IMG/VR virus record: IMGVR_UViG_3300033120_000574
Coordinates: 75,129-139,128 of that record
From: a virus
Lineage: Duplodnaviria; Caudoviricetes
Strand: one strand, 5' to 3'
DNA length: 64,000 bases
Shown here: piece by piece, positions 36,548 through 56,368 of the stretch
How positions within the stretch are numbered: the first letter of the stretch is position 1
Layout: every line of letters begins with the position of its first letter
Program-made: the position numbers and the translations under genes
The notes under the pieces: model-generated
Told to the model about the DNA's origin: nothing
Databases searched by the model: none
What the model saw: only the letters and a program-made list of their open reading frames with translations

Positions 36548-37378
36548 TTAGCGTCTCCAAATAGGTAGCGCAGGAGCACTCTGTTTTTCCAACAGAGAAC
36601 AGTGTGAACATGAGTTGTCCAAACTCTTATTCATATGTCCGCAAGCATTGCAGGACTTGTAGATCTGCACATTAACTTGTTCTGGTGCAGCTGAAACGTT
36701 CACAACTGGACGACCGTTTCTAAATGCTTCGTACAAATGTGGTTCTTTTGCAGCTGCAATAGGTTCAACAGTAATTTGTTCCTCTCCAGAGGAGACTGTA
36801 TCAGTTGCCACACTTATGGCTTTTCCAGACTTTGTGGACATCAAACGTGATGTCAGTGCTTTCAGGATTTCTTTTGGTGTGGACATATTTACTCCAGTGC
36901 GCGAACTAGGTCCTTGAATACTAGCAGATCGCTCATTTAAAAACAAGTGTTTGATTAGTTTACCATTACTTGCTTGCAGCTTAGCTTTAAATGCAAGCAT
37001 AGTATACTGTTTGATACTTCCTAAAAACTTCGGATTGTTATAGTGCTTTAGGTAAGCAGCCTTGGCTTCTTGCTCAGAGTCGAAGCCAAGCATTACCTTC
37101 TGTTCATCTATTTCTACAAATTCAGGAGCTTTTAGCTGTGTGACTACAAAGACGTTCTCAGCATGCGGGCTTGGTCCCACATAAACATCTACTTCTTCTC
37201 CATCCGTTCCAAGGGTACCACATATGAATCCGTAGGGATTCTGCATGTAAGTAGTACCCTTAGTGTCTGAAAATGGGTCGTACCAGTGTCGTTCTGTTCC
37301 TTGGTCAGTTTCGACACAAATACACAAGTCTTGATATGTAATATGTTTCACTACACACCTCTGTAGAAATCCAACCAA
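36548..37378 (-). CDS. Inorganic pyrophosphatase-like (InPase) domain protein
   Basis: 'YGFICGTLGTDGEEVDVYVGP...VFVVTQ...DEQKVMLGF...AKAAY' is the polyvalent-protein InPase signature. Confidence 0.8.
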   Translation of the reverse strand: MVGFLQRCVVKHITYQDLCICVETDQGTERHWYDPFSDTKGTTYMQNPYGFICGTLGTDGEEVDVYVGPSPHAENVFVVTQLKAPEFVEIDEQKVMLGFDSEQEAKAAYLKHYNNPKFLGSIKQYTMLAFKAKLQASNGKLIKHLFLNERSASIQGPSSRTGVNMSTPKEILKALTSRLMSTKSGKAISVATDTVSSGEEQITVEPIAAAKEPHLYEAFRNGRPVVNVSAAPEQVNVQIYKSCNACGHMNKSLDNSCSHCSLLEKQSAPALPIWRR

Positions 37379-40300
37379 GACTCGTCTTGGTCAAATGAGA
37401 CTTCAAACGTTTTAGTGTCAATGGACTTGGTGAAACCATCTGAATAAGAGGGTTTTGAATTATCTTCAGCTACTTGTGCTTCCGGTTTGTCTTTTCCTGG
37501 TTGTGCACTTGGTGGAGCTGTGCCACCACCAGCAGCTCCAGCAGCTCCGGCAGCAGCCTGCTGTTGCTCTAGTTGCCTACGTTGTTGTTGTGCTGTGGTG
37601 TATGTTGGGTTCAAGATCAAATCTCCATCAGCAACGTCAGGAAGGTCTTCTTGTCTACGAATCTCATTCAGGGTCATGTATGTTGATACTTGTTCCTTAC
37701 GTAGTTCATGCTTTTCTTGCTCTGTGAGTTCATCAAGACCAACAAAATCAAACGTGAAATTGTCGTCCAACTTATTAACCACGTTGTCATTTATCAGCTT
37801 AGCAAGGAAGCGAAGCATTGGCTTAAGCCCACGATCACGAGATGCCTTTAGCTTCCATTCTTGGCTTGATTCGAATAGAGGTGTCTGCTGAACACCGCCA
37901 TGCATGTCAAAGTTCAACTCTGCTGGATCGATCAAAAACACAGCACAGTTGTGTACAGCAAATCTGTGTGCTTGATATGTGTGTTCTCCGTCTACCTCTA
38001 TGTTGTAAACCTTTCCTTCAAAATGGTTTGTGTGAGAAGAAGAGACGGGAACGTAATAATACGTAGCACTTTCATAAATGGTAGAACGCAGTGCAGTCAA
38101 ACTACTCACTCTGTCACGTAACTTGTTACCCTTTGGCCCTCTCAACCAAGTAGCTAGTCTAGCGGAGTAGACACCATTAATATCTAAGCGGTGCAAGTCA
38201 TTAACAGAATTGAAACCAGTGTTTGTTACAGTGTAACGATGGGAATACACATTTTGACGAAACAACAGGTGGCGAATCTGTTCTAGTGCTGTTTTTGACA
38301 CAAGAGACAAAGTACTTACTGCAGCACCAGTGACGAAAGCAGGGACGGACCCGTCTCCTGCGAACACGCCGCTTATGAATGCACGTTGAACTTCTGTAGG
38401 AGCATCAAATAGCATCTTAGGAATCTTTTTCAATACAGCTTTTGAACCAAACAAATTTCCAAGAACATCAGCAACAAGAGAACTGTGCAAACAAATGTTA
38501 GCAGTGCTTTCTTTTGCTGCATAGGTACGAGAGTGTACTCCAATTCTAGTAGCTATGCGTTCAACAGCAGCTACGTACTCTTCTTCATGTTTTGCAAAAG
38601 TAAAGTATGCTGCTGACTCGGTTGTATTTCCTTCAGCTAAATACAACCCAAGAACGTAAGCTAGCTCTTCATCCAAAGCCCAATAACGTTGAATAAATTT
38701 TCCAGCATTTCCTTTAGGTGCAATATGCAAAGCATCAGGTGACACTCTGCAATTAGCGGCTCCCAATACGGCCAAACAATCGATTGTTTGGTCTTTTCCA
38801 ACAAATTCATACGTCTTCTTTGGTATGGTTAAGTAGTCAACGCCTTCAACGATTTCTCCTGCGTTTTTCCACGCAGGCTCACCAAATAGGCGAGAGCCGT
38901 TGTGCAAGGATGAGGAAACAACCCACATAGGATGTTCTGGAGTTACTTCGATGGTTTCTCCTGCTGTAAGGGTAACCAAAGGTCCACAGTATTCTGTGAT
39001 CTGTAAGTTACTCACATTGCGTGGTTGACCTGTGTGAGAAAATACCACATCTCCAGGCACTACAGATTCTATAGCTGTAGTCGACCCGTCTGCCATCGTG
39101 ATTGGTGTATTACCAGTGAAGCAGGTAATCTTGATCAGGTATTCCATCCACATGGAGTACTCCATCTCTTGATTACTTTGATGCAAAGGAACCCAGTCAA
39201 TACCCTGCTCTGATTGCATGATGGGAGTACGCCAAGCGTTGGTGACGCCCTCTACATTGTTCTTCCACTCACGTTTGAACACTTCTAACTGATCTCCAGT
39301 TAGATTGTCTCCCTTTATGTTCAAAATACCTTTCGGGGCTGAATTGGACGTTATACAGCCACCAGCGCTCCACCTATGTCCCTCATGTGTTTGTCTGACA
39401 TCAAACATAGGAACATGTACACCAATCACGTTAATGGATTTAATCTGAATCCATCGATAGTTTAGTGCCTCTTCTTGAGCAGAGGAGCGCAATGCTTTCA
39501 ACTGTGACTTACTTCGTGTGCCACCAGGTACATACCCTATTAACCGTTGTAGTATTCCTTCTTGTGCAAAGCGAGGAATCTTACCACCAGAATCCTTTCG
39601 ATTAGGAGAAACTGTTTTATATGTTTGTAGAAACCCAATCAGAGAAGCAAATTTGTTGTTTTCACAAACACGCAAATAGTGACAAGGTCTACCACTAGCA
39701 TTCATCAAAGAATGAGACAAGCTACTAGATATACCAAGAGACCACAGCAACTGTTGTACGCCAGCAATAAGGTTAGTACTAGAGCTACACACATATGCGT
39801 GAATGCCATTCTTAACGAACCCATCAGCACTGAAGTATCCGCGTAGAAAAGCAGCTCTGTTTTCTACAGTTTCTGCAAATAAACGAGAAGGAACAACTTT
39901 CTCATGTGATGCGGAAGAAGACATCCCAACAACGTTTGTCAAGAAATCAAACAAGCCTTTGTTTCGTATAACCAACGTATCAAGTTTAGTTCCTCCCCAA
40001 TCACCACCACTTTTACGCATATGATGTGATATTCCACGAGAACCAAGCATAGTTCGAAACTTTTCTTGTACCTCTGTGTCTTTGGGAGAGAACACGCAGG
40101 ATGTCGTGTAGTTTCTCTTATTTCCAGCATTTATCGAGCTACGTGTATCAGTTACGTACCCATCACCTACCAAAAATCCAATAAATTCGTAAAAAGGGGC
40201 ATCTAACAACCCTGCGTTTACTGTAGGTTGTTTTGGTTTTTTACCTACCTGAACATAAACAGGGTCTAGTTCATTGAATTCTAACAAGGCTTCACTTTGA

Positions 40301-41487
40301 GCTACAAAATCACCAACACGCAACTCTTGTAATTCCTTCATAACTGCTTGTCCATCACAAGACAAAGACAAGAACTTGTGATTTGGAGAGGTAATTAGAC
40401 TGTAATTGTTAGCCAACCCTACGCTAACAGCCTCTTTGTGGCCAGATGACACTACGTCAGAGGTAACCCACTCAGTTCCATTCCAGCAATCAAATACCTT
40501 TCCAACCAGGGAAGAGATAGGAACCAGCCCATCACGGGTATGAACAGTAGTATCTCCTGCTACACAACCTTGCATGAAAAAGCGTCTGTTGTACTCTTCA
40601 GCGTACAAATGTGCAGTGATTACAGTGATTAGTTGTTCTAGCTCTCCATAACCATAACCTTGCACATAGATGTCAGACCTGGGGTTACGTACACCAAATA
40701 CAAGTTCTTTGTTAGTGTATACGTTACGTTGCTGTCCATTGATTAACTGTACATATGCAGGGACATCATGAAGCTCTGGATTTTGAACCTTCATGGTCTT
40801 ATAGGGCTGGGTCAAGGTCTCAGCATGTCCACGCATCAAAGCATTGGCAGTATGCGTGGCGTGTGCCAGGTCCATATCCATGTGGTTGGATGCAATACGG
40901 ATTGTAGATGCATCTACAGCAAGAAATTCGTATGGCATTCCTTTACGGTCTGGAACCACTTCGAAAGTGGCTTGATCGTACATTAAGCTGTCACGAACAA
41001 GCTTCTTTAGGAAAGTTTCAAAGTCATCACGCACATATGGACTGTGTGGATTTGGGTCTTCAGCACCACAAGCATAGATGAACTTCTCTACAGACTGTAT
41101 GAATTCACGTTCACCTTTAGTCGTTAGTCGTGCGGGGTTCTTGTGTTTAACAGCAAAGCCGAGAGATTTGTTCAAACGAAACGGTGTAGCAAACTGGGCT
41201 ACTTGATTACATCTGGTTTGTAAAATAGCAGAGATGAGTGCTAGCTGCTGGGGAATGCGTTTAAGCGTTTCGTAAGACAACGAATAACGTCTGTCTTTGT
41301 AACCCATTGCAAACTGAATAGACAACGGGTCAAACACCAAAGACTTTGGACCTTTTGCAGCCAACTCTGGATCTAGCTTAGATTTCCTGATTTCTTCGGA
41401 AACCATGGAAGGAATCATGTTTGTAGCATCTCTCCACTTGGAGACGTGCTCAACCCACTTGTCTTGGTCTTTGAATCTGTCACTCAT
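37351..41487 (-). CDS. Portal protein with two inteins (about 578 aa after splicing)
   Basis: 'ILQTRCNQV', 'FLKKLVRDSL', 'RNPRSD..GYGYGELE', 'SRDRGLKPML'. Confidence 0.9.
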   Translation of the reverse strand: MSDRFKDQDKWVEHVSKWRDATNMIPSMVSEEIRKSKLDPELAAKGPKSLVFDPLSIQFAMGYKDRRYSLSYETLKRIPQQLALISAILQTRCNQVAQFATPFRLNKSLGFAVKHKNPARLTTKGEREFIQSVEKFIYACGAEDPNPHSPYVRDDFETFLKKLVRDSLMYDQATFEVVPDRKGMPYEFLAVDASTIRIASNHMDMDLAHATHTANALMRGHAETLTQPYKTMKVQNPELHDVPAYVQLINGQQRNVYTNKELVFGVRNPRSDIYVQGYGYGELEQLITVITAHLYAEEYNRRFFMQGCVAGDTTVHTRDGLVPISSLVGKVFDCWNGTEWVTSDVVSSGHKEAVSVGLANNYSLITSPNHKFLSLSCDGQAVMKELQELRVGDFVAQSEALLEFNELDPVYVQVGKKPKQPTVNAGLLDAPFYEFIGFLVGDGYVTDTRSSINAGNKRNYTTSCVFSPKDTEVQEKFRTMLGSRGISHHMRKSGGDWGGTKLDTLVIRNKGLFDFLTNVVGMSSSASHEKVVPSRLFAETVENRAAFLRGYFSADGFVKNGIHAYVCSSSTNLIAGVQQLLWSLGISSSLSHSLMNASGRPCHYLRVCENNKFASLIGFLQTYKTVSPNRKDSGGKIPRFAQEGILQRLIGYVPGGTRSKSQLKALRSSAQEEALNYRWIQIKSINVIGVHVPMFDVRQTHEGHRWSAGGCITSNSAPKGILNIKGDNLTGDQLEVFKREWKNNVEGVTNAWRTPIMQSEQGIDWVPLHQSNQEMEYSMWMEYLIKITCFTGNTPITMADGSTTAIESVVPGDVVFSHTGQPRNVSNLQITEYCGPLVTLTAGETIEVTPEHPMWVVSSSLHNGSRLFGEPAWKNAGEIVEGVDYLTIPKKTYEFVGKDQTIDCLAVLGAANCRVSPDALHIAPKGNAGKFIQRYWALDEELAYVLGLYLAEGNTTESAAYFTFAKHEEEYVAAVERIATRIGVHSRTYAAKESTANICLHSSLVADVLGNLFGSKAVLKKIPKMLFDAPTEVQRAFISGVFAGDGSVPAFVTGAAVSTLSLVSKTALEQIRHLLFRQNVYSHRYTVTNTGFNSVNDLHRLDINGVYSARLATWLRGPKGNKLRDRVSSLTALRSTIYESATYYYVPVSSSHTNHFEGKVYNIEVDGEHTYQAHRFAVHNCAVFLIDPAELNFDMHGGVQQTPLFESSQEWKLKASRDRGLKPMLRFLAKLINDNVVNKLDDNFTFDFVGLDELTEQEKHELRKEQVSTYMTLNEIRRQEDLPDVADGDLILNPTYTTAQQQRRQLEQQQAAAGAAGAAGGGTAPPSAQPGKDKPEAQVAEDNSKPSYSDGFTKSIDTKTFEVSFDQDESWLDFYRGV
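37948..39123 (-). mobile_element. Intein 2 in the portal (392 aa, LAGLIDADG)
   Basis: CFTGNT...TPEHP...LGLYLAEG...ISGVFAGDG...VHN/C. Confidence 0.9.
39343..40566 (-). mobile_element. Intein 1 in the portal (408 aa, LAGLIDADG)
   Basis: CVAGDT...SPNHKF...IGFLVGDG...LRGYFSADG...TSN/S. Confidence 0.9.
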
Positions 41488-43444: not shown

Positions 43445-44089
43445 TCACCCTGCAGAGTCTTCGTTGAATGTTAGTGGACGAGCATTAACTCCCTGCACAG
43501 CTGTAGCTCTAAACGCATCTTCGGTAGAGACAACACGCTCAACAGGCTTTTGACCTCTGCGTTCGCGCATATTATCTATCGTCTTTGTGTTTGAAGTTCT
43601 ACGTGGTACAGCCACTTGATTTGTGTCCTTGAGAGACACTAAGTCACGCAAATCAACATCTACAAGTTGATCCACTGCGACTTCAGTTAAGTTTACTTCA
43701 TATTTATCTTCTTGAGTACAAAGAAGAACAAGTTTATCACGACTCTTCAATCTGTGTGCTTGTTTTGGAGAAGCAATTACAGTGTCACCATTAGCAATGT
43801 GCTTGAACTCTTCCTCACCATCTGCGTTTGTGGTGACAAAATAACCACTTCCAGTAGCCACAGTGTAAGTGCGTGTCTTCTTTGCATGCTCCCAAATAGG
43901 AGTGGATGCTCCATCTACAAAGGACATGTAAAGCACAGTAAATGGCTTACAAGAAGCTTTTACGACATGAAATCCGTATACAGTTTGTACACGGTCTCCA
44001 GTGACACCAGCGATCTCACGAGTTGCTACAGCAACAATGTCTGAGTGTTTACGGAACTTCTTCGGATCCAGGTTCAGGTTTTGACGCAT
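43445..44089 (-). CDS. Cupin-domain protein
   Basis: 'H..KTRTYTVATGSG...GDTV.....AHRL'. Confidence 0.6.
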   Translation of the reverse strand: MRQNLNLDPKKFRKHSDIVAVATREIAGVTGDRVQTVYGFHVVKASCKPFTVLYMSFVDGASTPIWEHAKKTRTYTVATGSGYFVTTNADGEEEFKHIANGDTVIASPKQAHRLKSRDKLVLLCTQEDKYEVNLTEVAVDQLVDVDLRDLVSLKDTNQVAVPRRTSNTKTIDNMRERRGQKPVERVVSTEDAFRATAVQGVNARPLTFNEDSAG

Positions 44090-44396: not shown

Positions 44397-44596
44397 TTGC
44401 TTCTTACTCTTTTCTTTATGGAGTCTCGTGAACTTAAGGAACGATTATGCATCCTCCTGGCCTCAACCTGTGCTCTGTGTTCTTTAAGAAACGATTCCTG
44501 TGCTTGTTTACAGTTACATGCAACCAACGTTGCAGAGTCAGCTGCTGGAAGCAAAGTCAGTGCTTCTCCACAGAATTTACACTTGTAAGAAATCAT
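44393..44596 (-). CDS. Small Zn-ribbon protein
   Basis: CKFCG...CNC. Confidence 0.55.
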   Translation of the reverse strand: MISYKCKFCGEALTLLPAADSATLVACNCKQAQESFLKEHRAQVEARRMHNRSLSSRDSIKKRVRSK

Positions 44597-44892
44597 GCTT
44601 TCCTGTGAATGGTCAGTGGTCCAACGTTCCTAGGCTTTCCAAAGGTAGCTTTGGTTAGAAATATCAAGTTATTTATTGGTGCATGTTTCGGCAGCTTCAA
44701 ACTCAAATGAAAGATTTTACCTATCTCTACAGTGTCCTTGAGTGATAGAACGACTTCGTTGTTTAAAAACACCAAACCAGCTTGTAAGTATCTCTTACTT
44801 TCACGAATACTAGTACACATACCAGACAGGTCTAGTACTCTGTAAATTTCTGCATGAGTTGCAGTTCTGCTAGGCCAAGCCACGTATAGCAT
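44593..44892 (-). CDS. Stand-alone S4-like RNA-binding domain (TyrRS C-terminal type)
   Basis: 'LDLSGMCTSIRESKRYLQAGLVFLNNEVV'; likely start MLYVAW. Confidence 0.65.
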   Translation of the reverse strand: MLYVAWPSRTATHAEIYRVLDLSGMCTSIRESKRYLQAGLVFLNNEVVLSLKDTVEIGKIFHLSLKLPKHAPINNLIFLTKATFGKPRNVGPLTIHRKA

Positions 44893-44912
44893 AGTGTGAG
44901 TATAGCACAAAC

Positions 44913-44945
44913 AGAAATACCCACGAATGTTATTCGTGGGTTACT
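44913..44945 (-). terminator. Terminator of the tRNA operon
   Basis: CCCACGAAT/ATTCGTGGG hairpin followed by TATTTCTGTTT. Confidence 0.7.
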
Positions 44946-44960
44946 TTTGTGAGTTAGTAG

Positions 44961-45032
44961 TTTCCAGTGAAGGACTCGAACCTTCACAGACTTCTTCAGA
45001 GGAAGTTGACCTGCCAATTAGTCGAACCGGAA
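44961..45032 (-). tRNA. tRNA-Gln(CUG)
   Basis: Cloverleaf; loop CT-CTG-AA. Confidence 0.85.
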
Positions 45033-45047
45033 ATATAATAATCTCGA

Positions 45048-45118
45048 AGCCCCGGACGAGAATCGAACTCATGTCTCTCGCTTACAAGACGAGGGTACTG
45101 CCATTGTACTAACAGGGC
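45048..45118 (-). tRNA. tRNA-Thr(UGU)
   Basis: Loop CT-TGT-AA. Confidence 0.85.
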
Positions 45119-45122
45119 AAAG

Positions 45123-45190
45123 AGGGTCTAGTGAGAATCGAACTCACCAACAATGTTTTGCAGACATCGGTCAAACCATTTGTTAGACCC
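45123..45190 (-). tRNA. tRNA-Cys(GCA), short D arm
   Basis: Loop CT-GCA-AA. Confidence 0.75.
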
Positions 45191-45196
45191 AAAAAT

Positions 45197-45270
45197 TGGA
45201 GCGTCTTGCGGGGATCAAACCCGCGCCGAGAGTTTGGAAAACTCCTATGCTATCGCTACACCAAAGACGC
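45197..45270 (-). tRNA. tRNA-Gly(UCC)
   Basis: Loop TT-TCC-AA; encoded CCA. Confidence 0.85.
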
Positions 45271-45274
45271 AAAG

Positions 45275-45346
45275 TACCTTGTAGGAGAGTTGAACTCCTC
45301 TTACCCGATTGAAAGTCGAGAGTCCTTTCCGATAGACGAACAAGGC
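45275..45346 (-). tRNA. tRNA-Glu(UUC)
   Basis: Loop CT-TTC-AA. Confidence 0.85.
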
Positions 45347-45349
45347 ATA

Positions 45350-45421
45350 TGACCCTATTGGGAATCTAACCCAACTTACCTAGTTGAGAACCAGGCTTCT
45401 TGAACACTAGAAGATAGGGCC
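45350..45421 (-). tRNA. tRNA-Glu(CUC)
   Basis: Loop TT-CTC-AA; atypical T-loop TTAGATT. Confidence 0.75.
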
Positions 45422-45864
45422 GTGGCACGTGTACGAGATGCTTTCAAAGGGCACCCACATTATGTACACATTTTTAAGAACCATGTAGCGATTGTAGTAA
45501 GTTTGGAGTCTGCTACATCTGTTGCTTTAACCCACAACAGGGATAGTAACATTCCTTATACACAACTGTGTCCTCACGACAACCTTTTAAAAACTACGTA
45601 GCAGACCCATGCGAAGCAGGGATTTACACCCTTGCAGCGTCACCGCGAACTTCTACACATACCTTAAGTTATATGTGCTGCGTCTTTTCAAAAACTACTT
45701 GGCGATATACTAACTGCTTTGTGTAGTTTTACCTACGCCATCTGCCTCGCACGACACCGCGAGTGTTCCTGTATATCTTTAAAGAACCAATTTTGAGCAC
45801 ACAAGCAGTCAAATATATCGAGGTCTCACGCCCAACTTTGACAACCGCAAGGTTTTTAAGAACT
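45422..45864 (-). ncRNA. Unclassified structured RNA region with periodic boxA-like motifs
   Basis: No ORF in the track; multiple helices; RGTTYTTDAAA motif every 76-114 nt. Confidence 0.55.
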
Positions 45865-45866
45865 CA

Positions 45867-45952
45867 CGAAGAGCTGAATACTCGAAATCCACACCCTTTT
45901 GAGGTGCCATCTGTTTAGCAAACAGTGCTAGTTCCTAACTAGTTAACTCTTC
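45867..45952 (-). tRNA. tRNA-Ser(GCU)
   Basis: Loop TT-GCT-AA; long variable arm. Confidence 0.8.
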
Positions 45953-45980
45953 ATTTTAAGAACCACCAACAACGTTGGTA

Positions 45981-46067
45981 TGGAGAACAGACGAATCGAA
46001 CGCCACACCCTTTTGAGGTGCCCACTCACTTCCAATGAGGTCCAGTCCCAGACATGGTTTACTCTCC
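45981..46067 (-). tRNA. tRNA-Ser(GGA)
   Basis: Loop TT-GGA-AG; long variable arm. Confidence 0.8.
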
Positions 46068-46070
46068 AAA

Positions 46071-46156
46071 CGGTAGATAGAGGTATCGCGCCCCACACCC
46101 GAAAGGGTGCACACTGGTTTCAAAGCAGGTTCGGAGGCTTCTCCGATTTATCTACC
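46071..46156 (-). tRNA. tRNA-Ser(UGA)
   Basis: Loop TT-TGA-AA; long variable arm; atypical T-loop. Confidence 0.7.
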
Positions 46157-46158
46157 AA

Positions 46159-46701
46159 TCAACTTTCATCTACCGCAAGATTCCAGTACAAGTAATCTTT
46201 CCACTCTTTTGGAGAGTTTGATAGACTTACCATGACTTTCTTCTTAGGAGACCAATCCGGTTTCGTAGGAACACTGTGCAGGCGCATCTTAGCCTCTGCA
46301 GGAGTCCTATCCGCCTTCTTACTGTTGCAAGTCAAGCAAGACGTTGTGATGTTGTCCCACACTGTCTTACCACCCTTAGAGCGGGGCAAAACGTGGTCAT
46401 ACGTCAACTTGCTCATAGTGAATGGCTTGTTGCAGTACTGACAAGTGTAGTTGTCTCTTGCGAAGACATTCATCCTAGAGAACTTGATTTTCTCTTTCTT
46501 AGGCTTTACATAGGTTGTCAACCTAAGTACAGCAGGACAACACATAGTGTGATTTGCACTCTTTAGTTCAAAATCAGGGTATTCCTCTATTATGTCAACT
46601 TTCTTCTCAAACCAAAGAACTATGGCTCTTTGCCAAGTAAGAATCTTCATTGGCTCGTACGTAGCGTTCAGTAACAAGACTTTATGTTCTTCAGCTAGCA
46701 T
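46159..46701 (-). CDS. HNH endonuclease (McrA/HNH_5 family)
   Basis: 'LLLNATYEP', 'RDNYTCQYC...TYDHVLPRSKGG...CLTCNSKK'. Confidence 0.9.
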   Translation of the reverse strand: MLAEEHKVLLLNATYEPMKILTWQRAIVLWFEKKVDIIEEYPDFELKSANHTMCCPAVLRLTTYVKPKKEKIKFSRMNVFARDNYTCQYCNKPFTMSKLTYDHVLPRSKGGKTVWDNITTSCLTCNSKKADRTPAEAKMRLHSVPTKPDWSPKKKVMVSLSNSPKEWKDYLYWNLAVDES

Positions 46702-46704
46702 AAA

Positions 46705-46777
46705 TCCACCTGGAGGGAGTTGAACCCACTCATGTCCGCTTATAAGACGGATGCCTAAACCGTTTGGCTTCAGGTGG
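46705..46777 (-). tRNA. tRNA-Ile(UAU)
   Basis: Stem TCCGT/GCGGA; loop CT-TAT-AA. Confidence 0.8.
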
Positions 46778-46779
46778 GT

Positions 46780-46852
46780 ATATCAGCATCGAGAATCGAA
46801 CTCGAACGTTGAAGCGTATGAAACCTAACGACTAGCCACAGTATGCTGATAT
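46780..46852 (-). tRNA. Atypical tRNA(CAU)-like element
   Basis: 9-bp terminal stem, canonical T arm, loop TT-CAT-AC, reduced D arm. Confidence 0.5.
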
Positions 46853-46875
46853 GCAGAGAACCTGCAAGGGAAAAT

Positions 46876-46949
46876 TGGGAGCGATCGCCGGAGTTGAACA
46901 CGGTCCTGAAGCTTATGAGACTTCGGTGCAGCCCTTACACCACCACGCC
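46876..46949 (-). tRNA. tRNA-Met/Ile2(CAU), imperfect acceptor stem
   Basis: Loop CT-CAT-AA; encoded CCA. Confidence 0.6.
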
Positions 46950-46950
46950 A

Positions 46951-46995
46951 TGTCCTAGGAGGGATTCGAACCCTCATGCTTTCGCTACACCAAGT
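46951..46995 (-). pseudogene. 3' half of a type II (Leu-like) tRNA
   Basis: Variable arm, GAGGG-TTCGAAT-CCCTC and acceptor strand; no D arm. Confidence 0.6.
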
Positions 46996-47021
46996 AAAGG
47001 ACAACCAAAACAAGTATGCTA

Positions 47022-47106
47022 TAGAAACGAAGAGATTTGAACTCTTATGCACCTCACAGTGCGTTTGCGTTTGAAGCAAATGTGTAAACCATTCCACCAC
47101 GTTTCC
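47022..47106 (-). tRNA. tRNA-Leu(CAA)
   Basis: Loop TT-CAA-AC; long variable arm. Confidence 0.85.
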
Positions 47107-47116
47107 AAATAAATTT

Positions 47117-47545
47117 ATGCGAAAAAAGTATTCAAGGTACACTAAAGAGCAACTAGAACCTCTTGTTAAAGAGAGCAAATCCTATGCGGAAGTTATAAAG
47201 AAACTAGGTCTTAGGATTTGTGGAGGTAACTACGTGCTCCTACAAAGAAATATAGACAAGTTTCAAATCAGCTGTGAACATATGCTATTCCAAGCAGCGA
47301 ACCAAGGAAGAGAATTTGTAAAATATGAAGAAATTTCGACGCACGCAGCTATAAAGAAACGTATTCTACGAGAACGAGGACTTGTCTGTGAGGGGTGTAA
47401 TTTAGACACCTGGTTAGGTAAGCCTATTACCTTAGAGATGGATCATATAGATGGGGACAACAGGAACAACACAAAAACAAACATAAGAATTTTGTGTCCA
47501 AATTGTCACAGTCAAACTCCAACTTGGAAGAACAACAAGAAGTAA
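47117..47545 (+). CDS. HNH homing endonuclease, antisense to the tRNA operon
   Basis: 'CEGC...LEMDHIDGDNRNN...LCPNCHSQT'. Confidence 0.9.
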   Translation: MRKKYSRYTKEQLEPLVKESKSYAEVIKKLGLRICGGNYVLLQRNIDKFQISCEHMLFQAANQGREFVKYEEISTHAAIKKRILRERGLVCEGCNLDTWLGKPITLEMDHIDGDNRNNTKTNIRILCPNCHSQTPTWKNNKK

Positions 47546-47567
47546 GTACCAGTTCCACCACACGGAC
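47546..47567 (-). pseudogene. 5' fragment of a Leu-like tRNA
   Basis: GTCCGTG-TG-GTGGAACTGGTAC, ending at the HNH stop codon. Confidence 0.6.
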
Positions 47568-47655
47568 ATTCAAAATTGGTTGCCAGTTTAACTGTTACGT
47601 AAAGCACTTCTAGCAAGAAGCTTAGATTTATATTGTCACCCTAATCCAAGGGTGT

Positions 47656-47735
47656 TGCAGTTGGAGAGATTCGAACTCTCATACCGAAGCGGGAAATCTT
47701 AAAGATCCTGTGTATGCCAATTCCACCACAACTGC
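47656..47735 (-). tRNA. tRNA-Leu(UAA)
   Basis: Leu-type D loop; loop TT-TAA-GA; weak anticodon stem. Confidence 0.7.
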
Positions 47736-47749
47736 ATTTAGTTTATCAA

Positions 47750-47833
47750 TGACACAGGTGAGAGTCGAACTCACAAGAGGAATTACCCACAACAGTTTCT
47801 AAGACTGCCCGCTCGCCGTTGGCGTACTGTGCC
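47750..47833 (-). tRNA. tRNA-Leu(UAG)
   Basis: Loop CT-TAG-AA. Confidence 0.8.
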
Positions 47834-47838
47834 GTAAA

Positions 47839-47910
47839 TACCAGATTAGGGAATCGAACCCAACTATATCACTGTGTAAAAGTGGTGCCTACCCAGTCAG
47901 CTTATCTGGC
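47839..47910 (-). tRNA. tRNA-Val(UAC)
   Basis: Loop TT-TAC-AC. Confidence 0.85.
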
Positions 47911-47915
47911 ATACT

Positions 47916-47987
47916 CGTTGTTGAAGAGAATCGAACTCTTATTTAAACTTTAGGAAAGTCTTGCTCTATCCGTTGAACTACAACAAC
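47916..47987 (-). tRNA. tRNA-Arg(CCU)
   Basis: Loop TT-CCT-AA. Confidence 0.85.
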
Positions 47988-47990
47988 AGA

Positions 47991-48034
47991 CGCTTTTGTT
48001 TGGACTTGAACCTACCACTTGACGCCAAATCAAA
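47991..48034 (-). pseudogene. 3' portion of a degenerate tRNA
   Basis: Hairpin, GG-TTCAAGT-CC and CAAAAGC-G. Confidence 0.55.
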
Positions 48035-48046
48035 ATTGAATTATAC

Positions 48047-48121
48047 CGTCCTTGGTAGGAATCGAACCTACAAAATTGCTTGTTTAGAAGACAAGTGTTC
48101 TATCCGTTGAACTACAAGGAC
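48047..48121 (-). tRNA. tRNA-Arg(UCU)
   Basis: Loop CT-TCT-AA. Confidence 0.85.
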
Positions 48122-48125
48122 AAAA

Positions 48126-48665
48126 ATGATATCAGTAACATGTGAAAACTGTAGCAAAGAATTCTTCAAGAATAAGTCTGAAGCTGCTCGGAGCCCTAGA
48201 CACTTTTGTAGCAGGTCTTGTGCAAATAGCAAGCACAACACCGAGAAAGCAAAACGAAGTAAGAAGCAAAGAACATGTACTCTATGTACAAAGAGTTACA
48301 TACAAACAAAAGCGAGACGCAAGATATGTGAAGTTTGTTTTGTTCCACCACTCTGTAAAGATAACATGACACTCAGTCAGTGTAAGGACAAATTAAGTGT
48401 TCAAGGCAAGCACCCATCATGGTACACTGTGCACGTAAGAGGACATAATAGAACGAAGAATAAAAAGCTAGCTACTAGCTGCCAGAAATGTGGGTACAGT
48501 AAACATGTAGAGTGTTGTCATATCAAACCAGTCGCAAGTTTTGAAGGCAATGCAACGTTGGCTGAAATTAATCATGTGGACAATATTGTTGTTTTATGTA
48601 GAAATTGTCACTGGGAGTTTGACCACAATCAACTAAGCATAGTAGATATTCCAAAGCGTAAGTAA
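48126..48665 (+). CDS. HNH endonuclease with Zn fingers, antisense to the tRNA operon
   Basis: 'CENC..FCSRSC', 'CQKCG..CHIKP..N..VLCRNCHWEFD'. Confidence 0.85.
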   Translation: MISVTCENCSKEFFKNKSEAARSPRHFCSRSCANSKHNTEKAKRSKKQRTCTLCTKSYIQTKARRKICEVCFVPPLCKDNMTLSQCKDKLSVQGKHPSWYTVHVRGHNRTKNKKLATSCQKCGYSKHVECCHIKPVASFEGNATLAEINHVDNIVVLCRNCHWEFDHNQLSIVDIPKRK

Positions 48666-48692
48666 TTACGCTATCCTTTGTGCTACAAAAGC
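48666..48692 (-). pseudogene. 5' fragment of an Arg-like tRNA
   Basis: GCTTTTG-TA-GCAC-AAAGGATA-GCGT, ending at the HNH stop codon. Confidence 0.6.
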
Positions 48693-48694
48693 AA

Positions 48695-48769
48695 GCCTAG
48701 GTAGAGGGATTTGAACCCCTCATTTCACGGTTCGTAGCCGCGCGTGGTATCCGTTACACTATACCTAGA
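48695..48769 (-). tRNA. tRNA-Arg(ACG)
   Basis: Loop CT-ACG-AA. Confidence 0.85.
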
Positions 48770-48771
48770 TA

Positions 48772-48843
48772 AGCCGCCACAGGTACTTGAAACCTGTTTT
48801 CCTCCATACCAAGGAGGTACATCACCATATATGTTTTAGCGGC
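48772..48843 (-). tRNA. tRNA-Thr(GGU)
   Basis: Loop TT-GGT-AT. Confidence 0.85.
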
Positions 48844-48846
48844 ACA

Positions 48847-48919
48847 TGGACAAGACTGGACTCGAACCAGCGGTCTTCTGAGTGCAAGTCAGAGGTTTTC
48901 CCAACTAAACTACTCGCCC
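48847..48919 (-). tRNA. tRNA-Ala(UGC)
   Basis: Loop CT-TGC-AC. Confidence 0.85.
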
Positions 48920-48930
48920 AATTAAAACTG

Positions 48931-49040
48931 ACGAAATTGTTACCATTACAACACATTGCCACTGCAGTGAATTCAAGACTAATCAAGCAAAATTACGCCC
49001 ATAGTCTTAACAATGCTGGGAATCGAACCCAGGTCTTCGT
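48931..49040 (-). ncRNA. Circularly permuted tRNA-mimic (YrlA-type Y RNA-like)
   Basis: Order 5'->3': terminal stem, T arm, closed acceptor-like stem, D arm, terminal stem. Confidence 0.65.
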
Positions 49041-49045
49041 ACTTC

Positions 49046-49113
49046 CACGTTATATAGGAATCGAACCTATGATGAAAAGTTTTGGAGGCTTCTCTGTGCC
49101 CAGCACCTAACGT
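49046..49113 (-). tRNA. tRNA-Trp(CCA), short D arm
   Basis: Loop CT-CCA-AA. Confidence 0.7.
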
Positions 49114-49131
49114 ATACAAGCTAAGATAAGA

Positions 49132-49203
49132 AGTGACTGACGGGAATTGAACCCGCTAATACCTGATTCACAATCAAGCGCTTGGCCATTTAGCTTCAGC
49201 CAC
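49132..49203 (-). tRNA. tRNA-His(GUG)
   Basis: Loop TT-GTG-AA. Confidence 0.85.
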
Positions 49204-49204
49204 A

Positions 49205-49275
49205 CGCTCCATAGGGGAATCGAACCCCTCTCAACTTGGAGACAACAAGTCCGCAACCCAGTTGCGCAATGGAGC
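49205..49275 (-). tRNA. tRNA-Asp(GUC)
   Basis: Loop TT-GTC-TC (U37). Confidence 0.75.
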
Positions 49276-49330
49276 AGGCACGGCATCTTACTTTTTTGGG
49301 GTGCGTCAGCTAGCCGTAATCGACCCACAG

Positions 49331-49403
49331 TGCCATCGACTGGACTCGAACCAGCATTTATGTCCGGTTAAAAGCCGGGTACCAACCTTTAGGTGACGAT
49401 GGC
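49331..49403 (-). tRNA. tRNA-Lys(UUU)
   Basis: Loop CT-TTT-AA. Confidence 0.85.
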
Positions 49404-49406
49404 AAA

Positions 49407-49481
49407 TCCAAGCAGAAGGAATCGAACCTGTCAATCTCTCGCTTATCAGGCAAGCGTATATAACCACTATACTATGCTTGG
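49407..49481 (-). tRNA. tRNA-Ile(GAU)
   Basis: Loop CT-GAT-AA. Confidence 0.85.
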
Positions 49482-49486
49482 GTTAG

Positions 49487-49558
49487 TCCAGCTAAGAAGA
49501 TTCGAACTTCTATTGTCCTGTACCCAAAACAGGTGGGTTACCGTTACCCTATAGCTAG
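49487..49558 (-). tRNA. tRNA-Pro(UGG)
   Basis: Loop TT-TGG-GT. Confidence 0.85.
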
Positions 49559-49564
49559 ATGAAA

Positions 49565-49649
49565 TGCCCCATGGAAGGAATCGAACCTCACAGCCTAACG
49601 GCACGTGGTTTACAGCCACGGGGATGTTCCAACATCCGGATCACAGGAC
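49565..49649 (-). tRNA. tRNA-Tyr(GUA)
   Basis: Loop CT-GTA-AA; long variable arm. Confidence 0.8.
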
Positions 49650-49653
49650 AAAG

Positions 49654-49726
49654 TGCAACCTACTGGAATCGAACCAATTTGTCTTGTTCTTCAGACAAGC
49701 GCATTAACCATAATTGCTTAGGTTGC
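49654..49726 (-). tRNA. tRNA-Phe(GAA)
   Basis: Loop CT-GAA-GA. Confidence 0.85.
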
Positions 49727-49731
49727 ATTGA

Positions 49732-49806
49732 CTGGGACGGCAGGAGTCGAACCTGCAATCACTATATTAACAGTATAGCCGTCGCGCCGATATGACGAAC
49801 ATCCCA
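49732..49806 (-). tRNA. tRNA-Asn(GUU)
   Basis: Loop CT-GTT-AA. Confidence 0.85.
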
Positions 49807-49821
49807 ATAATCTAACTCTTA

Positions 49822-49838
49822 TTCAGTTTTCAAAAAGT
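49822..49838 (-). promoter_or_regulatory. rrn-type boxA-like antitermination site
   Basis: ACTTTTTGAAAACTGAA, resembling rrn leader boxA (GTTCTTTGAAAACT); near the 5' end of the RNA operon. Confidence 0.55.
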
Positions 49839-49913
49839 TTCCAGGGTAGGATTCGAACCTACGACCATCAGTTTCAAAGACTGAGTACACGTGCCAGCAG
49901 CGTAGACCTGGAA
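49838..49913 (-). tRNA. tRNA-Gln(UUG)
   Basis: Loop CT-TTG-AA. Confidence 0.85.
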
Positions 49914-49914
49914 G

Positions 49915-49987
49915 TGGTAACGAAGGGAATCGAACCCTCTATGGCTTGCTTAAGAGGCAAGTGCTTATCCAGTTTAGCTTCGTTACC
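49915..49987 (-). tRNA. tRNA-Lys(CUU)
   Basis: Loop CT-CTT-AA. Confidence 0.9.
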
Positions 49988-50016
49988 AAGAAGTAAGAGA
50001 ACATCTTACTTCGGAT

Positions 50017-50045
50017 ATGCTATCACTTATCTTTTTCGTTGTCAA
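50017..50045 (-). promoter_or_regulatory. Promoter of the tRNA operon
   Basis: TTGACA-17nt-TAGCAT with extended TG; leader hairpin at 49990-50012. Confidence 0.65.
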
Positions 50046-50424
50046 GAGAAATCGTAGCTAGGCGCTTTCTAGTATTCTCTATTCGCTTTGCTAGCCTGGA
50101 GTAGCCTAGTATGACTACTTTTGGCAGACCTGAGTCTTTTGTCAAGGCCAATTTGTCGGAGACAACACGAAGCATGTCAGGTACACGTGTAAACGAAGGC
50201 TCAGCTAAGAAGATGCAGGCTGCTGCCAACTCACCACTCAAAGCATCCACCAAGTTCTCCAGTTCGTCAAGGTCAGGATTCTCTTTTGTTGTCATCCCGG
50301 TATCTGCAAACATCTGGTGTAATGCTTGTGCAAACGCAACTGCGTCAGCTGCATACTCCAAAGCTTCCTTACTTGGAGAAGATGACTCTAGAGACTCTAT
50401 GATCTTGGAATAATTATCACTCAT
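50023..50424 (-). CDS. Hypothetical protein
   Basis: 133 aa, helical; promoter TTGCCA-17-TAAGGT upstream. Confidence 0.6.
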   Translation of the reverse strand: MSDNYSKIIESLESSSPSKEALEYAADAVAFAQALHQMFADTGMTTKENPDLDELENLVDALSGELAAACIFLAEPSFTRVPDMLRVVSDKLALTKDSGLPKVVILGYSRLAKRIENTRKRLATISLDNEKDK

Positions 50425-50611
50425 GATGCTTCTGGTGTTACCTTAGCTGGAAAACAGTCAGCTGGCAAGGAGCTAGCTACAACTCCCTCAATATATGCTG
50501 ATACGCTAACACTCTGCTTCTCACAGTGAGTGCGTACTGCAGTGAGCACGTCAGGGTCAACAGTGATGGATGTACGAACTTTGGTTTCTTTCTTACTCAT
50601 TTATACCTCTA

Positions 50612-53218: not shown

Positions 53219-56200
53219 TTATAAAGACGATGCAGTCAAGTCTACAACCTCACAAAAACCACCTGAACAAGCCAACGTCTGTGTACCAGACGTTGAATCT
53301 TCTAGTTCGAATTCTTTAAGTTTACTCCAATCAAAAGAAGTAGGCATCTTTGCCAACAAAACATCATATTGTTCCTTTGTAATAGCTTCATATGGTGCTT
53401 GGGCGTAAGTGTGGTCATTGCTAGGCAAAAAAGACACACCAGAGCAGGTATCGAAGTTGTTCCAAATCCAGTTACCTACTTCCAAAAATTCAGAGTCGGT
53501 ATAATACACAGTAATGGATGGTTTGTGTTCACACCAGTGCTCTTGATACATTGACCACAAGCGCAACTGATGCATCGCACCTACATCTGCGACGACCGTT
53601 GCTGTATCTGGACTTTTCATTGGAAATGAAAACACAAATACATCTTCAGGTTTCATGCTATCTGGTTCACAAGGAAACAATCCAGAGTCTCGCATCATAG
53701 TAGCCAGTGGATCTCTTTGATCCGCACGGACACGACGAATGTAATACTTGCTGAATCGAGGATGGATTCCACTAGAAGAATCCACCAGCTGGGACACGGT
53801 ATTGTGGCTCTTTACAGCGCCAGCATAGTACCAGTGTGTGTTTTCTACTTCAACGTCATAAGTAGGAACAACTCGGGACACTTTAGAGGACACAACTTTT
53901 CCAAGGATAGAGGACTTTGTAGAAGTCTCATGATGCCACGCAGAAACATTACTAGCCTTGATGCTGTGCTTCTTAAGCATTTGAATAGAAGTGGGGTCTT
54001 GGATAGCAGTTCCAGACAACAACCACATGTGCTTACTCTCCTGAAAGTTCTTGCCTTTCGAATTTAGAGAACGGCCAATGCCAAGTCCCACTGACCAAGC
54101 AACATCCTGTAGTTGCTTAGCAAAACCATCATACGCAGTGGTGAACATAAACCTAGACACGTTATTAGTAGTTGAGATGCATCCGTCACTGTCTAGAAGA
54201 CCTGCGAAAAAGGCAACAACAGACTCTCTAGACGACTCTCGTATCTTACGAGGTATTGACATAGTTGACTTATCAAATCCATTAGAAATAAACCAGTCAT
54301 AAAGAAATACACTACCCTTTTCTAAAACAAAAGCATTTCTTCCTTCTGAAGCGGGAAGGATGTTACTGTCTACATCGAACAGCTCCTTAAGAACATTTTG
54401 TGCTTTTTCCAAATGTGTAATGTTCTGATCTATGAATCTGATTCTAGACTTGTTAGGAGACAAGCAGCCATCCCCGTATAGGTAACCAATAAGCCACGCC
54501 AGGTTTGGCGTCATGTGAGAAGGTTGTTTTCCTTCAGACTTAACTTGAGCATGATTTTGGTCGATTGGTACTGCCGTGTGTATTAATTCTGCTTCACTTT
54601 CTTTGGAGTAAGAGGTGAGACACACATCTAAGATATCGCCCGGTTGGATGTTTGCAGCAGACACCCAATCGTTAACATCTGTATACTTATGAAGTTTGGA
54701 TCTGTCGTAACGTTGTTTTACAAACCATTTATGGTTTGTAGTTGACTCAACAGTCATACCATAAGACAAAGTCAACTCAATAACAGGCTGTTCTCCGTTA
54801 GCATACGTCTTTGAGATTTTGCTATTGGAGGTTCCTTGAAGAGCCTGCACGTTGCCTTGTACATCACACCAAACACCACTTCCATGTGCCTCCATCAACT
54901 CTTCCAAAGTTAACAGTCCCTTTGATGTAGACGTAAGAGCGTCCCCTGGTCTACAACCACTAGGCTTGCAACAAGTAATACTTGTGCTTTGGTTTATTCC
55001 AAGTTTTTCACTCCAGACTTTATTTGTGGAAATTGCTACTTCACGCAAGGTATTAAGCCATTCAGGCAGTTCAGCAGCTTCTGGATTGCCCATAATAGGG
55101 TGGTCCATAATACCAGTAAGAGAAACACCAAGAAGAGCCTCCTCTACTGTGTTGCGTTCCCAAACCTTTCTTAAATAGCGAAATGAAGTAAGTGTAGCTT
55201 GCAGAGTTCCAAGAATAGTTGCTTTAACGACTTTGTCTTTTAGCGTGTCTAAAGTATCTGTAGACCGGATCACCACCTCTGACAAGTTACAAAATTGATT
55301 GGGTCTAAGAATTATTTCACTACAGGGATTAGTTCCAAACGAATGGTTTGCGTCACGTCTACCTGTCTTTGCTGCTTGCTTTTGTGAAGCAACCCTACTG
55401 AAGATTCCACGTTCTCCAGACTTAGATTCATACAAAGACTGCCATTCTTTTAGAAATATCTCAAACTCTGGTTTCTCTGTATAACATGCTGAGTTGTTGG
55501 CAAGCTGGCGCTGTTTGTTGTTCTCCCACCATTGTCCAGATTTAGCAAGACGCATACGGTCATCGCTCAAGTTTGATAGACTTATGAGAGCAGATCTACG
55601 TACACCACCTACCACAACGATATCAGCAATCATGCATACCAAGTCATGGCACTCTAAAGAAGAAAGTTTTCTACCAGCTGCTTTCTTGAACATTGTTACA
55701 CAAAACTTAAACAACTTCACAAGAGGCTCTGGACCACTTGCACGTCCGCCAAACGTCTTTAGACGTGCTCCCGCCAAGCGAAGATTCGAAACATCCCATT
55801 TGGGTACGGTACCGTTATACAAAAGAGTAAGTAATTGCCGTAGCGAAGTAGCCCAACCAATCTTGGAATCAGCCACTACAATGGTAGTATCCGAGTCATG
55901 AAAGGTCTCAGCAATATCTGGAAGCTGACTGACGTATTGTCGTTCTACGCTAAAGCCTACTCCAGTACCACACATAAGGATGTACATGATCTCATCAAAC
56001 ACTTTGGGGTTGTCAATGACCGCATAGCTGCAGTTATACCCGGAAACTTGGTCGCGCTCTAGAGCAGGACCAGCGGTCATCAAGCAACGCATAGAAGGCA
56101 TAACTTCAAGGTCGTGAATAGGCGTAAACAGGGCTTCAATCTCTTTGGCAAATGTTGGATGTTTCTTTGCAAAGAATGAAACGTAACGACCAACTGTTTC

Positions 56201-56368
56201 CTTCCACGTCTCGCGGCGTCCCTCATCTTCAAGCCAACGGCTATAGCGTGACAAGTGAATAAATTCAGAATACAAAGGTGTTGCAGTTGAGTCGAACGCT
56301 GTATCCTTCTCTTGTTCTACAATGCTGATAAAGTTCTTATTTGAACGAATTGTGGGAAGCTCTGTCAT
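53219..56368 (-). CDS. nrdJ: Class II (B12-dependent) ribonucleotide reductase with intein
   Basis: 'PSMR', 'YNCS', 'GTGVGFS', 'VGGVRRSA', 'TNPCSE', 'KPSG/T', 'WCEHKPS', C-terminal C...C. Confidence 0.92.
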   Translation of the reverse strand: MTELPTIRSNKNFISIVEQEKDTAFDSTATPLYSEFIHLSRYSRWLEDEGRRETWKETVGRYVSFFAKKHPTFAKEIEALFTPIHDLEVMPSMRCLMTAGPALERDQVSGYNCSYAVIDNPKVFDEIMYILMCGTGVGFSVERQYVSQLPDIAETFHDSDTTIVVADSKIGWATSLRQLLTLLYNGTVPKWDVSNLRLAGARLKTFGGRASGPEPLVKLFKFCVTMFKKAAGRKLSSLECHDLVCMIADIVVVGGVRRSALISLSNLSDDRMRLAKSGQWWENNKQRQLANNSACYTEKPEFEIFLKEWQSLYESKSGERGIFSRVASQKQAAKTGRRDANHSFGTNPCSEIILRPNQFCNLSEVVIRSTDTLDTLKDKVVKATILGTLQATLTSFRYLRKVWERNTVEEALLGVSLTGIMDHPIMGNPEAAELPEWLNTLREVAISTNKVWSEKLGINQSTSITCCKPSGCRPGDALTSTSKGLLTLEELMEAHGSGVWCDVQGNVQALQGTSNSKISKTYANGEQPVIELTLSYGMTVESTTNHKWFVKQRYDRSKLHKYTDVNDWVSAANIQPGDILDVCLTSYSKESEAELIHTAVPIDQNHAQVKSEGKQPSHMTPNLAWLIGYLYGDGCLSPNKSRIRFIDQNITHLEKAQNVLKELFDVDSNILPASEGRNAFVLEKGSVFLYDWFISNGFDKSTMSIPRKIRESSRESVVAFFAGLLDSDGCISTTNNVSRFMFTTAYDGFAKQLQDVAWSVGLGIGRSLNSKGKNFQESKHMWLLSGTAIQDPTSIQMLKKHSIKASNVSAWHHETSTKSSILGKVVSSKVSRVVPTYDVEVENTHWYYAGAVKSHNTVSQLVDSSSGIHPRFSKYYIRRVRADQRDPLATMMRDSGLFPCEPDSMKPEDVFVFSFPMKSPDTATVVADVGAMHQLRLWSMYQEHWCEHKPSITVYYTDSEFLEVGNWIWNNFDTCSGVSFLPSNDHTYAQAPYEAITKEQYDVLLAKMPTSFDWSKLKEFELEDSTSGTQTLACSGGFCEVVDLTASSL
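53801..54955 (-). mobile_element. Intein in NrdJ (385 aa, LAGLIDADG)
   Basis: KPSG/CRPGD...IGYLYGDG...FAGLLDSDG...KSHN/TVSQL. Confidence 0.92.

Follow-up and report, generated by a model that had tools for sequence, protein, structure and literature searches.

Homing endonuclease genes are thought to persist in essential genes by means of self-splicing introns or inteins, or else to reside between genes. In the tRNA gene cluster of phage T4, the free-standing GIY-YIG homing endonuclease SegB cuts within the tRNA genes of SegB-less relatives and is passed on along with the tRNA genes next to it, the empty sites being those of T2L, RB1 and RB3 (PMC2330249). Intron-less homing by free-standing endonucleases is also known for T4 SegF and MobE, and among the "fractured genes" the Aeh1 nrdA/mobE case is a gene split by endonuclease insertion (PMC2677866). 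The hegA gene of T5/BF23 is annotated in its database entry as the H-N-H endonuclease F-TflIV (AJ604530; Akulenko et al. 2004, in PMC2330249). F-TflIV has been described as a site-specific nicking enzyme. To our knowledge, no homing by this enzyme has been demonstrated. A 2014 review, which placed all phage introns then known in protein-coding genes, has among its references the group I introns that interrupt the anticodon loop of tRNA-Leu(UAA) in cyanobacteria and plastids as well as the endonuclease of the Synechocystis tRNA-fMet intron (PMC3984707). A full-text literature search yielded no description of a nuclease-plus-tRNA cassette nested in a broken tRNA gene.

We have analysed an arrangement of this kind in a 64-kb stretch of viral DNA (the window), which forms the final part of a 139-kb virus record. 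The minus strand of the window carries the genes for the major head protein, sheath, portal and ribonucleotide reductase as well as 25 tRNA genes, all of which were located by ARAGORN in an array at 44960-49987. The only two ORFs longer than 140 aa that lie within the array and oppose its direction are both HNH endonuclease genes. We propose, with a probability of about 0.75, that one of them forms together with a tRNA-Leu(CAA) gene a free-standing, intron-less homing-type element which lies inside the phage's earlier tRNA-Leu(CAA) gene. The two genes of the element are divergently oriented, and the resident gene apparently survives as dead stubs corresponding to its first ~21 nt and its last ~35-45 nt. 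Read along the minus strand, the cassette and the spacer preceding it consist of the following parts:

47568..47653, minus strand: spacer of 86 nt with two short hairpins, between the UUA-anticodon tRNA and the 5' stub
47546..47567, minus strand: 5' remnant of the resident tRNA-Leu, 22 nt, with acceptor GTCCGTG and the D stem/loop (about positions 1-21)
47117..47545, plus strand: HNH ORF encoding 142 aa, running against the tRNA array (phrog_10822, 1e-39)
47021..47107, minus strand: intact type II tRNA-Leu(CAA) with A73 (ARAGORN; Rfam tRNA 56.2 bits)
46996..47020, minus strand: spacer of 25 nt
46951..46995, minus strand: 3' remnant of the resident tRNA-Leu, with a partial variable arm, the T arm, acceptor CTAGGAC and A73

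A preliminary description of this DNA had named the two fragments, the antisense HNH gene and the intact tRNA in the same minus-strand order, and each was recovered where it had been placed. The 5' fragment (47567-47546) does end at the HNH stop, as had been noticed there, base 47546 adjoining the stop codon of the ORF. The tRNA-Leu(CAA) regarded as intact forms a full cloverleaf in the ARAGORN prediction, in agreement with its Rfam score, and its 5' end and the start codon of the HNH gene are 9 nt apart.

The 13-nt D-arm motif of the 5' stub has two occurrences in the 64 kb, in the stub itself and in one genuine tRNA, where chance would give 0.17. For the 3' stub, a Leu-tRNA HMM was built from 92 phage Leu tRNAs. 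In the nhmmer search, 46983-46951 matched HMM positions 52-84 with an E value of 0.0012, and this match outscored every other T arm in the window. The 3' half delimited in the preliminary description (46995-46951) is therefore real as a piece of tRNA-Leu, while its start was set slightly generously because the robustly homologous part (about 46984-46950) begins only at 46984. HMM positions 22-51 are missing from the two stubs. About 25-30 nt of the resident tRNA have been lost, comprising the 3' strand of the D stem, all of the anticodon arm and a portion of the variable arm.

Other origins of the 3' stub were considered and discarded. Its stretch GCGAAAGC was compared with the last hairpin of an intron, the same words being found at the intron ends of L019 and L041, two related loci treated below; the reading as an intron remnant was rejected because the homologous stubs of the relatives L112 and L110 show a tRNA variable arm. 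A self-contained mini-tRNA can be drawn from 47001-46951 by means of a local GTCCT, which at 47001 pairs as well as the acceptor of the 5' stub does; it was taken as a chance fold since the relatives are without such a strand. The 3' stub was also tried as an orthologue of the Leu(AAG) gene of the related phage G001, which has the same 1-nt spacer before a CAU tRNA-like gene, and the acceptors fitted Leu(CAA) better.

Besides the phrog_10822 profile, annotated as "HNH endonuclease", the ORF matched Pfam HNH (PF01844) with 17.6 bits, which is under the cut-off of 21.4. The DH...N...H motif and two Cys pairs are intact and conserved in the alignment with the L112 paralogue; profile and motif place the protein in the HNH (His-Me finger) class. 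In a test for a GIY-YIG domain, only HNH-type families were matched, which sets the element apart from the SegB-like class. The closest homologues, found in a large protein collection, are 63-65% identical over the full length. More than 585 homologues were retrieved from IMG/VR with a best identity of 56%, and nothing above 56% identity was obtained in a metagenome search with the same protein. Megablast and blastn searches of a curated phage collection with 46600-48000 gave single-tRNA matches only and no relative; an exact search of IMG/VR for the 3' stub had no match, and an IMG/VR search with the flanking gene 43445-44089 revealed no relatives.

The HNH family is associated with tRNA-Leu genes. 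Of the 80 IMG/VR loci kept, about 45 have a tRNA-Leu no more than 200 nt from the HNH gene. In an independent set of 80 metagenome loci, a tRNA-Leu was found within 120 nt in 37 and a split Leu gene in 6 more. The window protein falls into a clade of nine with 99% SH-aLRT support, in which each of the nine genes runs antisense to its tRNA and seven belong to the cassette type. Three further branches include cassette forms next to intron-borne and free-standing ones, in what is a quick tree with poorly supported deep branches.

The same order of parts (5' Leu stub, antisense HNH gene, complete Leu tRNA, spacer and 3' Leu stub) is present in the contigs of the closest HNH homologues, L110/L111, L112/L113 and L114-116, and the window-type layout is also seen in L002 and L044. 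The loci L001, L051 and L120 have a partial layout, with the 5' stub, the antisense HNH gene and a complete Leu tRNA and no cognate 3' stub. The 5' stub of the window occupies a position equivalent to that of the 5' stubs in L110, L114, L001, L051, L002 and L044. In L110 and L112, a tRNA-Leu(CAA) is found at the same place as the spare tRNA of the window, and the spacer between it and the 3' stub measures 200-265 nt and includes a small ORF (25 nt in the window). The 3' stubs of the window and L112 are 86% identical over 35 nt. In the cultured Rhodococcus phage Francesca (L118, 93459-94040), which could serve as a laboratory model, a tRNA-Leu(UAA) is followed by a sense HNH gene whose product is 44% identical and then by a 5' Leu stub that comes directly after the HNH stop codon.

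The acceptor strands of the two window stubs, GTCCGTG and CTAGGAC, pair at five of seven positions, as had been counted correctly in the preliminary description. This pairing alone is not significant, since 28% of non-cognate Leu halves from 14 loci reach at least five pairs (mean 3.7 of 7; at least six in 6%), and it is therefore the comparative data that carry the case. That the fragments might derive from different genes had been raised in the preliminary description as the finding that would speak against its reading, and the relatives gave the opposite result. The stub acceptors pair at all seven positions in L110 (GCCCAAG/CTTGGGC), L114 (GCGGGTA/TACCCGC), L002 and L044 and at six of seven in L112 (GCCCAAG/CTAGGGC). 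Altogether, with the register of two pairings corrected by hand, the pairing is 7/7 in 10 of the 14 split loci, 6/7 in two and 5/7 in two. On these comparative data, the two stubs are of common origin. The 3' acceptor of the window differs from that of L112 solely at position 71 (A for G), and the T2-A71 pair of the window, as against C2-G71 in L110, L112 and G001, is possibly a compensatory change.

Phages with major head proteins 84-88% identical to that of the window were located and their tRNA arrays were compared. The complete 169-kb genome G001 and G003, whose array is the same, have an intact tRNA-Leu(CAA) between a tRNA(CAU) gene and a PTH2-like ORF, at the site that is split in L112; the uninterrupted tRNA which the preliminary description had suggested looking for in related phages thus exists. 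L112 is colinear with G001, with 74-84% DNA identity on both sides of the site. In place of the 83-nt Leu(CAA) gene of G001, L112 has the first 28 nt of a G001-type Leu(CAA) (89% identical), an insert of 838 nt consisting of an antisense HNH gene, a foreign tRNA-Leu(CAA) and a small ORF, and the last ~40 nt of Leu(CAA) (80% identical), followed by the orthologous PTH2-like ORF (76% amino acid identity to that of G001; 65% for L110). As judged by eye, the foreign tRNA-Leu(CAA) differs from the resident one at many positions. A conserved site with colinear flanks is therefore polymorphic in the relatives, being intact in G001 and G003 and filled in L112. A second cassette of L112, which encodes a paralogous HNH protein 58% identical to that of the window and carries a tRNA-Leu(UAA), lies in a Leu(UAA) gene that is intact in G001; a single array has here two paralogous HNH + tRNA cassettes, in Leu(CAA) and in Leu(UAA) (L112, 709-1432).

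Another cassette of the same design is located in the window itself, at 47991..48692, 600 nt from the Leu cassette:

48692-48669, minus strand: 5' Arg stub, abutting the stop codon of the HNH_2 ORF
48126-48665, plus strand: HNH_2-family ORF, antisense to the tRNAs (Pfam HNH_2, 3.4e-9)
48122-48046, minus strand: intact tRNA-Arg(UCU), 3 nt from the start codon of the HNH_2 ORF
about 48016-47991, minus strand: decayed T arm and acceptor (3' Arg stub)

The acceptors of the Arg stubs (GCTTTTG/CAAAAGC) form seven of seven pairs. The 5' Arg stub is ~83% identical to the resident Arg(UCU) gene of G001, where Arg(ACG), Arg(UCU) and Arg(CCU) are adjacent with no ORF between them. Spare tRNA and broken gene agree in their anticodon in the CAA cassette, in the second cassette of L112 (UAA) and in the Arg cassette of the window (UCU).

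The suggestion of the preliminary description that a homing-type cassette had broken a resident tRNA and supplied its replacement is supported by the layout in the relatives and by the comparison of G001 with L112, while the activity of the nuclease and its target are deduced from the family context. During a mixed infection, the HNH enzyme would cut or nick the intact tRNA-Leu gene of a cassette-free relative. The break would be repaired from the cassette-bearing genome, with the conserved D-arm and T-arm/acceptor ends and the DNA beyond them providing homology, and the HNH gene would be copied in together with the linked tRNA. The resident tRNA would be destroyed by this event, and the imported tRNA with the same anticodon, its gene presumably resistant to cutting, would spare the phage any harm from the insertion, a task that would fall to a self-splicing group I intron in related elements. 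The stubs would be relics, perhaps also homology arms, and would decay afterwards, which would explain the lost anticodon arm and the two acceptor mismatches in the window. The element may still be mobile at present.

It is unlikely that the HNH protein lacks a homing function, or has lost it, and acts instead as a fixed, domesticated nuclease in recombination or amplification of the array, similarly to T4/T6 SegB, or is encoded by a decaying passenger gene. Amplification of tRNA anti-defence loci by SegB is reported in a 2026 paper (PMC13096335), the stubs of the window are old and decayed, and a promoter scan of the plus strand detected no promoter-like site for the HNH gene. However, the full-length ORF has an intact catalytic motif, a patchy distribution is seen among close relatives, and paralogous cassettes occupy two Leu genes in the array of L112, all of which argues for a homing enzyme.

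The gene order of the array bears on a further alternative. G001 is without the cassette of the window; because the tRNA genes of its array follow another order, the two sites do not correspond exactly, and no exact empty site for the window's own array position was found in the relatives compared. The cassette with its stubs precedes the conserved CAU tRNA-like gene in the window, whereas the corresponding place is after this gene in G001, L110 and L112, and in G001 Leu(AAG) abuts the CAU tRNA-like gene with nothing between. Because of this difference in order, either the cassette or its neighbours must have moved, and rearrangement of the array has occurred as well. The 86-nt spacer at 47568-47653 has no counterpart in G001. 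The 5' acceptor strand resembles that of Leu(CAA) of G001 and the 3' strand that of the L112 stub, and the window stubs could consequently be chimeric. Together with the modest acceptor pairing and other T-arm relics elsewhere in the array, these features would fit stubs left over from two distinct tRNA-Leu genes or alleles and joined by array rearrangement, no gene having been split. We consider this origin quite improbable in view of the stub-HNH-tRNA-stub order with 6-7/7 pairing in the nearest HNH relatives, of the single interrupted gene seen when G001 and L112 are compared, and of the 5' stub that abuts the HNH stop codon just as in six other loci.

Several other features of the window were recorded. 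The long-arm tRNA at 47654-47736 (minus strand) was assigned the anticodon UUA by ARAGORN and would be an ochre suppressor; its anticodon stem is weak, with 4 bp including two G-U pairs, and relatives have Leu(AAG) or Leu(GAG) in its place. Since TAA ends 14 of 40 long ORFs, the genome is not recoded, and this tRNA could be a shifted or decaying Leu(UAA). The tRNA-like gene at 46876-46949 (minus strand), which has CAU in its anticodon loop, an unusual T arm and a 3' end reading ...CTCCCA, was called by neither ARAGORN nor Rfam; it is kept in the window phage, G001 and L110, and in L107 it lies at about 6850-6930. The array gaps 48921-49131 and 45422-46158 (minus strand) contain more T-arm-like relics and repeated tRNA-like words, which are probably decayed tRNA genes. 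The portal (1378 aa; 37351-41487, minus strand) and ribonucleotide reductase (1049 aa; 53219-56368, minus strand) far exceed the lengths of their profiles, and their inner stretches match endonuclease or unrelated families, which suggests that both genes hold inteins or other insertions.

The HNH family is linked not only to tRNA-Leu genes but also to introns at U34/A35. Leu(UAA) is split exactly between these bases in eight IMG/VR loci (L008, L019, L035, L041, L043, L049, L053 and L079), with a 5' exon ending in ...CTT, a 3' exon starting with AAAA and an insert ending in G. The HNH ORF lies within the insert in L008, L019, L041, L043, L049, L053 and L079, in sense orientation in five of them and antisense in two, and alongside it in L035. 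The 194-nt insert of L035 contains no ORF and matches Rfam Intron_gpI over the whole model with 54.7 bits (E 2e-13; gathering score 50), which identifies a group I intron in the tRNA gene of this relative. A search of L035 alone detected this intron, whereas a Rfam search at the gathering threshold over 15 loci missed the introns. A weak Intron_gpI match (30 bits) was found in L008. In L046, the HNH gene lies beside a 190-nt insert in Leu(UAA) as in L035; since the 5' exon is followed by an A in this locus, the position of the junction is ambiguous by one base. The split Leu(UAA) genes are located at 4426-4704 in L035 and 3644-3916 in L046, and in seven of the nine interrupted Leu(UAA) loci the insert encloses the HNH ORF in one or the other orientation. 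The two tRNA halves of L002 and L044 are complete, with the break at U34/A35, and the antisense HNH gene and a whole tRNA(UAA) between them leave no room for a ribozyme.

In the window, no Intron_gpI match was found by Rfam in 44500-50500 at E values up to 10, and the non-coding spacers of the cassette measure only 9 and 25 nt, which leaves it outside the group I introns; with positions 22-51 missing and acceptors pairing at 5/7, the stubs are also unlike an archaeal-type split tRNA. That the outer halves still give a working tRNA, by intron splicing or archaeal-type joining, is hardly conceivable despite the complete halves of the distant relatives L002 and L044 and the true group I introns at U34/A35 of related loci, given the ~25-30 nt missing from the window gene, the lack of a ribozyme and the two broken acceptor pairs.

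More generally, phage tRNA arrays may host recurrent intron-less homing elements that bring a spare tRNA copy with the same anticodon. Such elements could have arisen repeatedly, from HNH genes carried by the group I introns of tRNA-Leu(UAA) and, on a separate occasion, within at least one further HNH family, as represented by the Arg cassette, with the stubs acting as portable homology arms for the invasion of diverged tRNA genes. We put this forward tentatively, at somewhat less than even odds; if true, spare-tRNA elements would drive the turnover and the isoacceptor make-up of phage tRNA sets. Next to introns or inteins and to insertion between genes, the element of the window would represent a third solution, in which the element brings the replacement for the gene that it breaks and needs no self-splicing intron to reside in an RNA gene. 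This would be a simple account of the tRNA stubs and HNH genes that litter phage tRNA arrays and of the fast changes in their tRNA content. Phage tRNA genes with group I introns, a situation recorded as unknown in the 2014 review, are now documented as well. With an enzyme of 142 aa, a target of 85 nt and alleles that occur naturally in both the empty and the filled state, the system is testable.

Each of the described systems shares some features with the element of the window. Distant members of its HNH family occupy in phages the same U34/A35 site as the Leu(UAA) introns of cyanobacteria and plastids, whereas the window has a spare tRNA instead of a ribozyme. Among characterised proteins, the product of BF23/T5 hegA is the closest homologue (35% identity over residues 10-136, E 9e-14), and hegA also belongs to a phage tRNA cluster, where it immediately follows tRNA genes; however, it encodes 227 aa in the tRNA-sense orientation without flanking Leu stubs, in contrast to the antisense gene for 142 aa in the window. 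As in the case of SegF, MobE and the Aeh1 genes, an endonuclease gene would spread with flanking DNA and without an intron or intein, the target being sometimes physically split. The targets in those systems stay functional, either intact or as two working pieces, whereas the target in the window is dead and a complete substitute has been brought in. The best functional analogue appears to be T4 SegB, likewise a nuclease gene among phage tRNA genes, although SegB is of the GIY-YIG and not of the HNH type. SegB, which recognises a T-arm motif found in many tRNAs, is intergenic and does not leave a resident tRNA in two pieces, whereas the element of the window carries a spare tRNA with the same anticodon and is nested in the very gene that it replaces.
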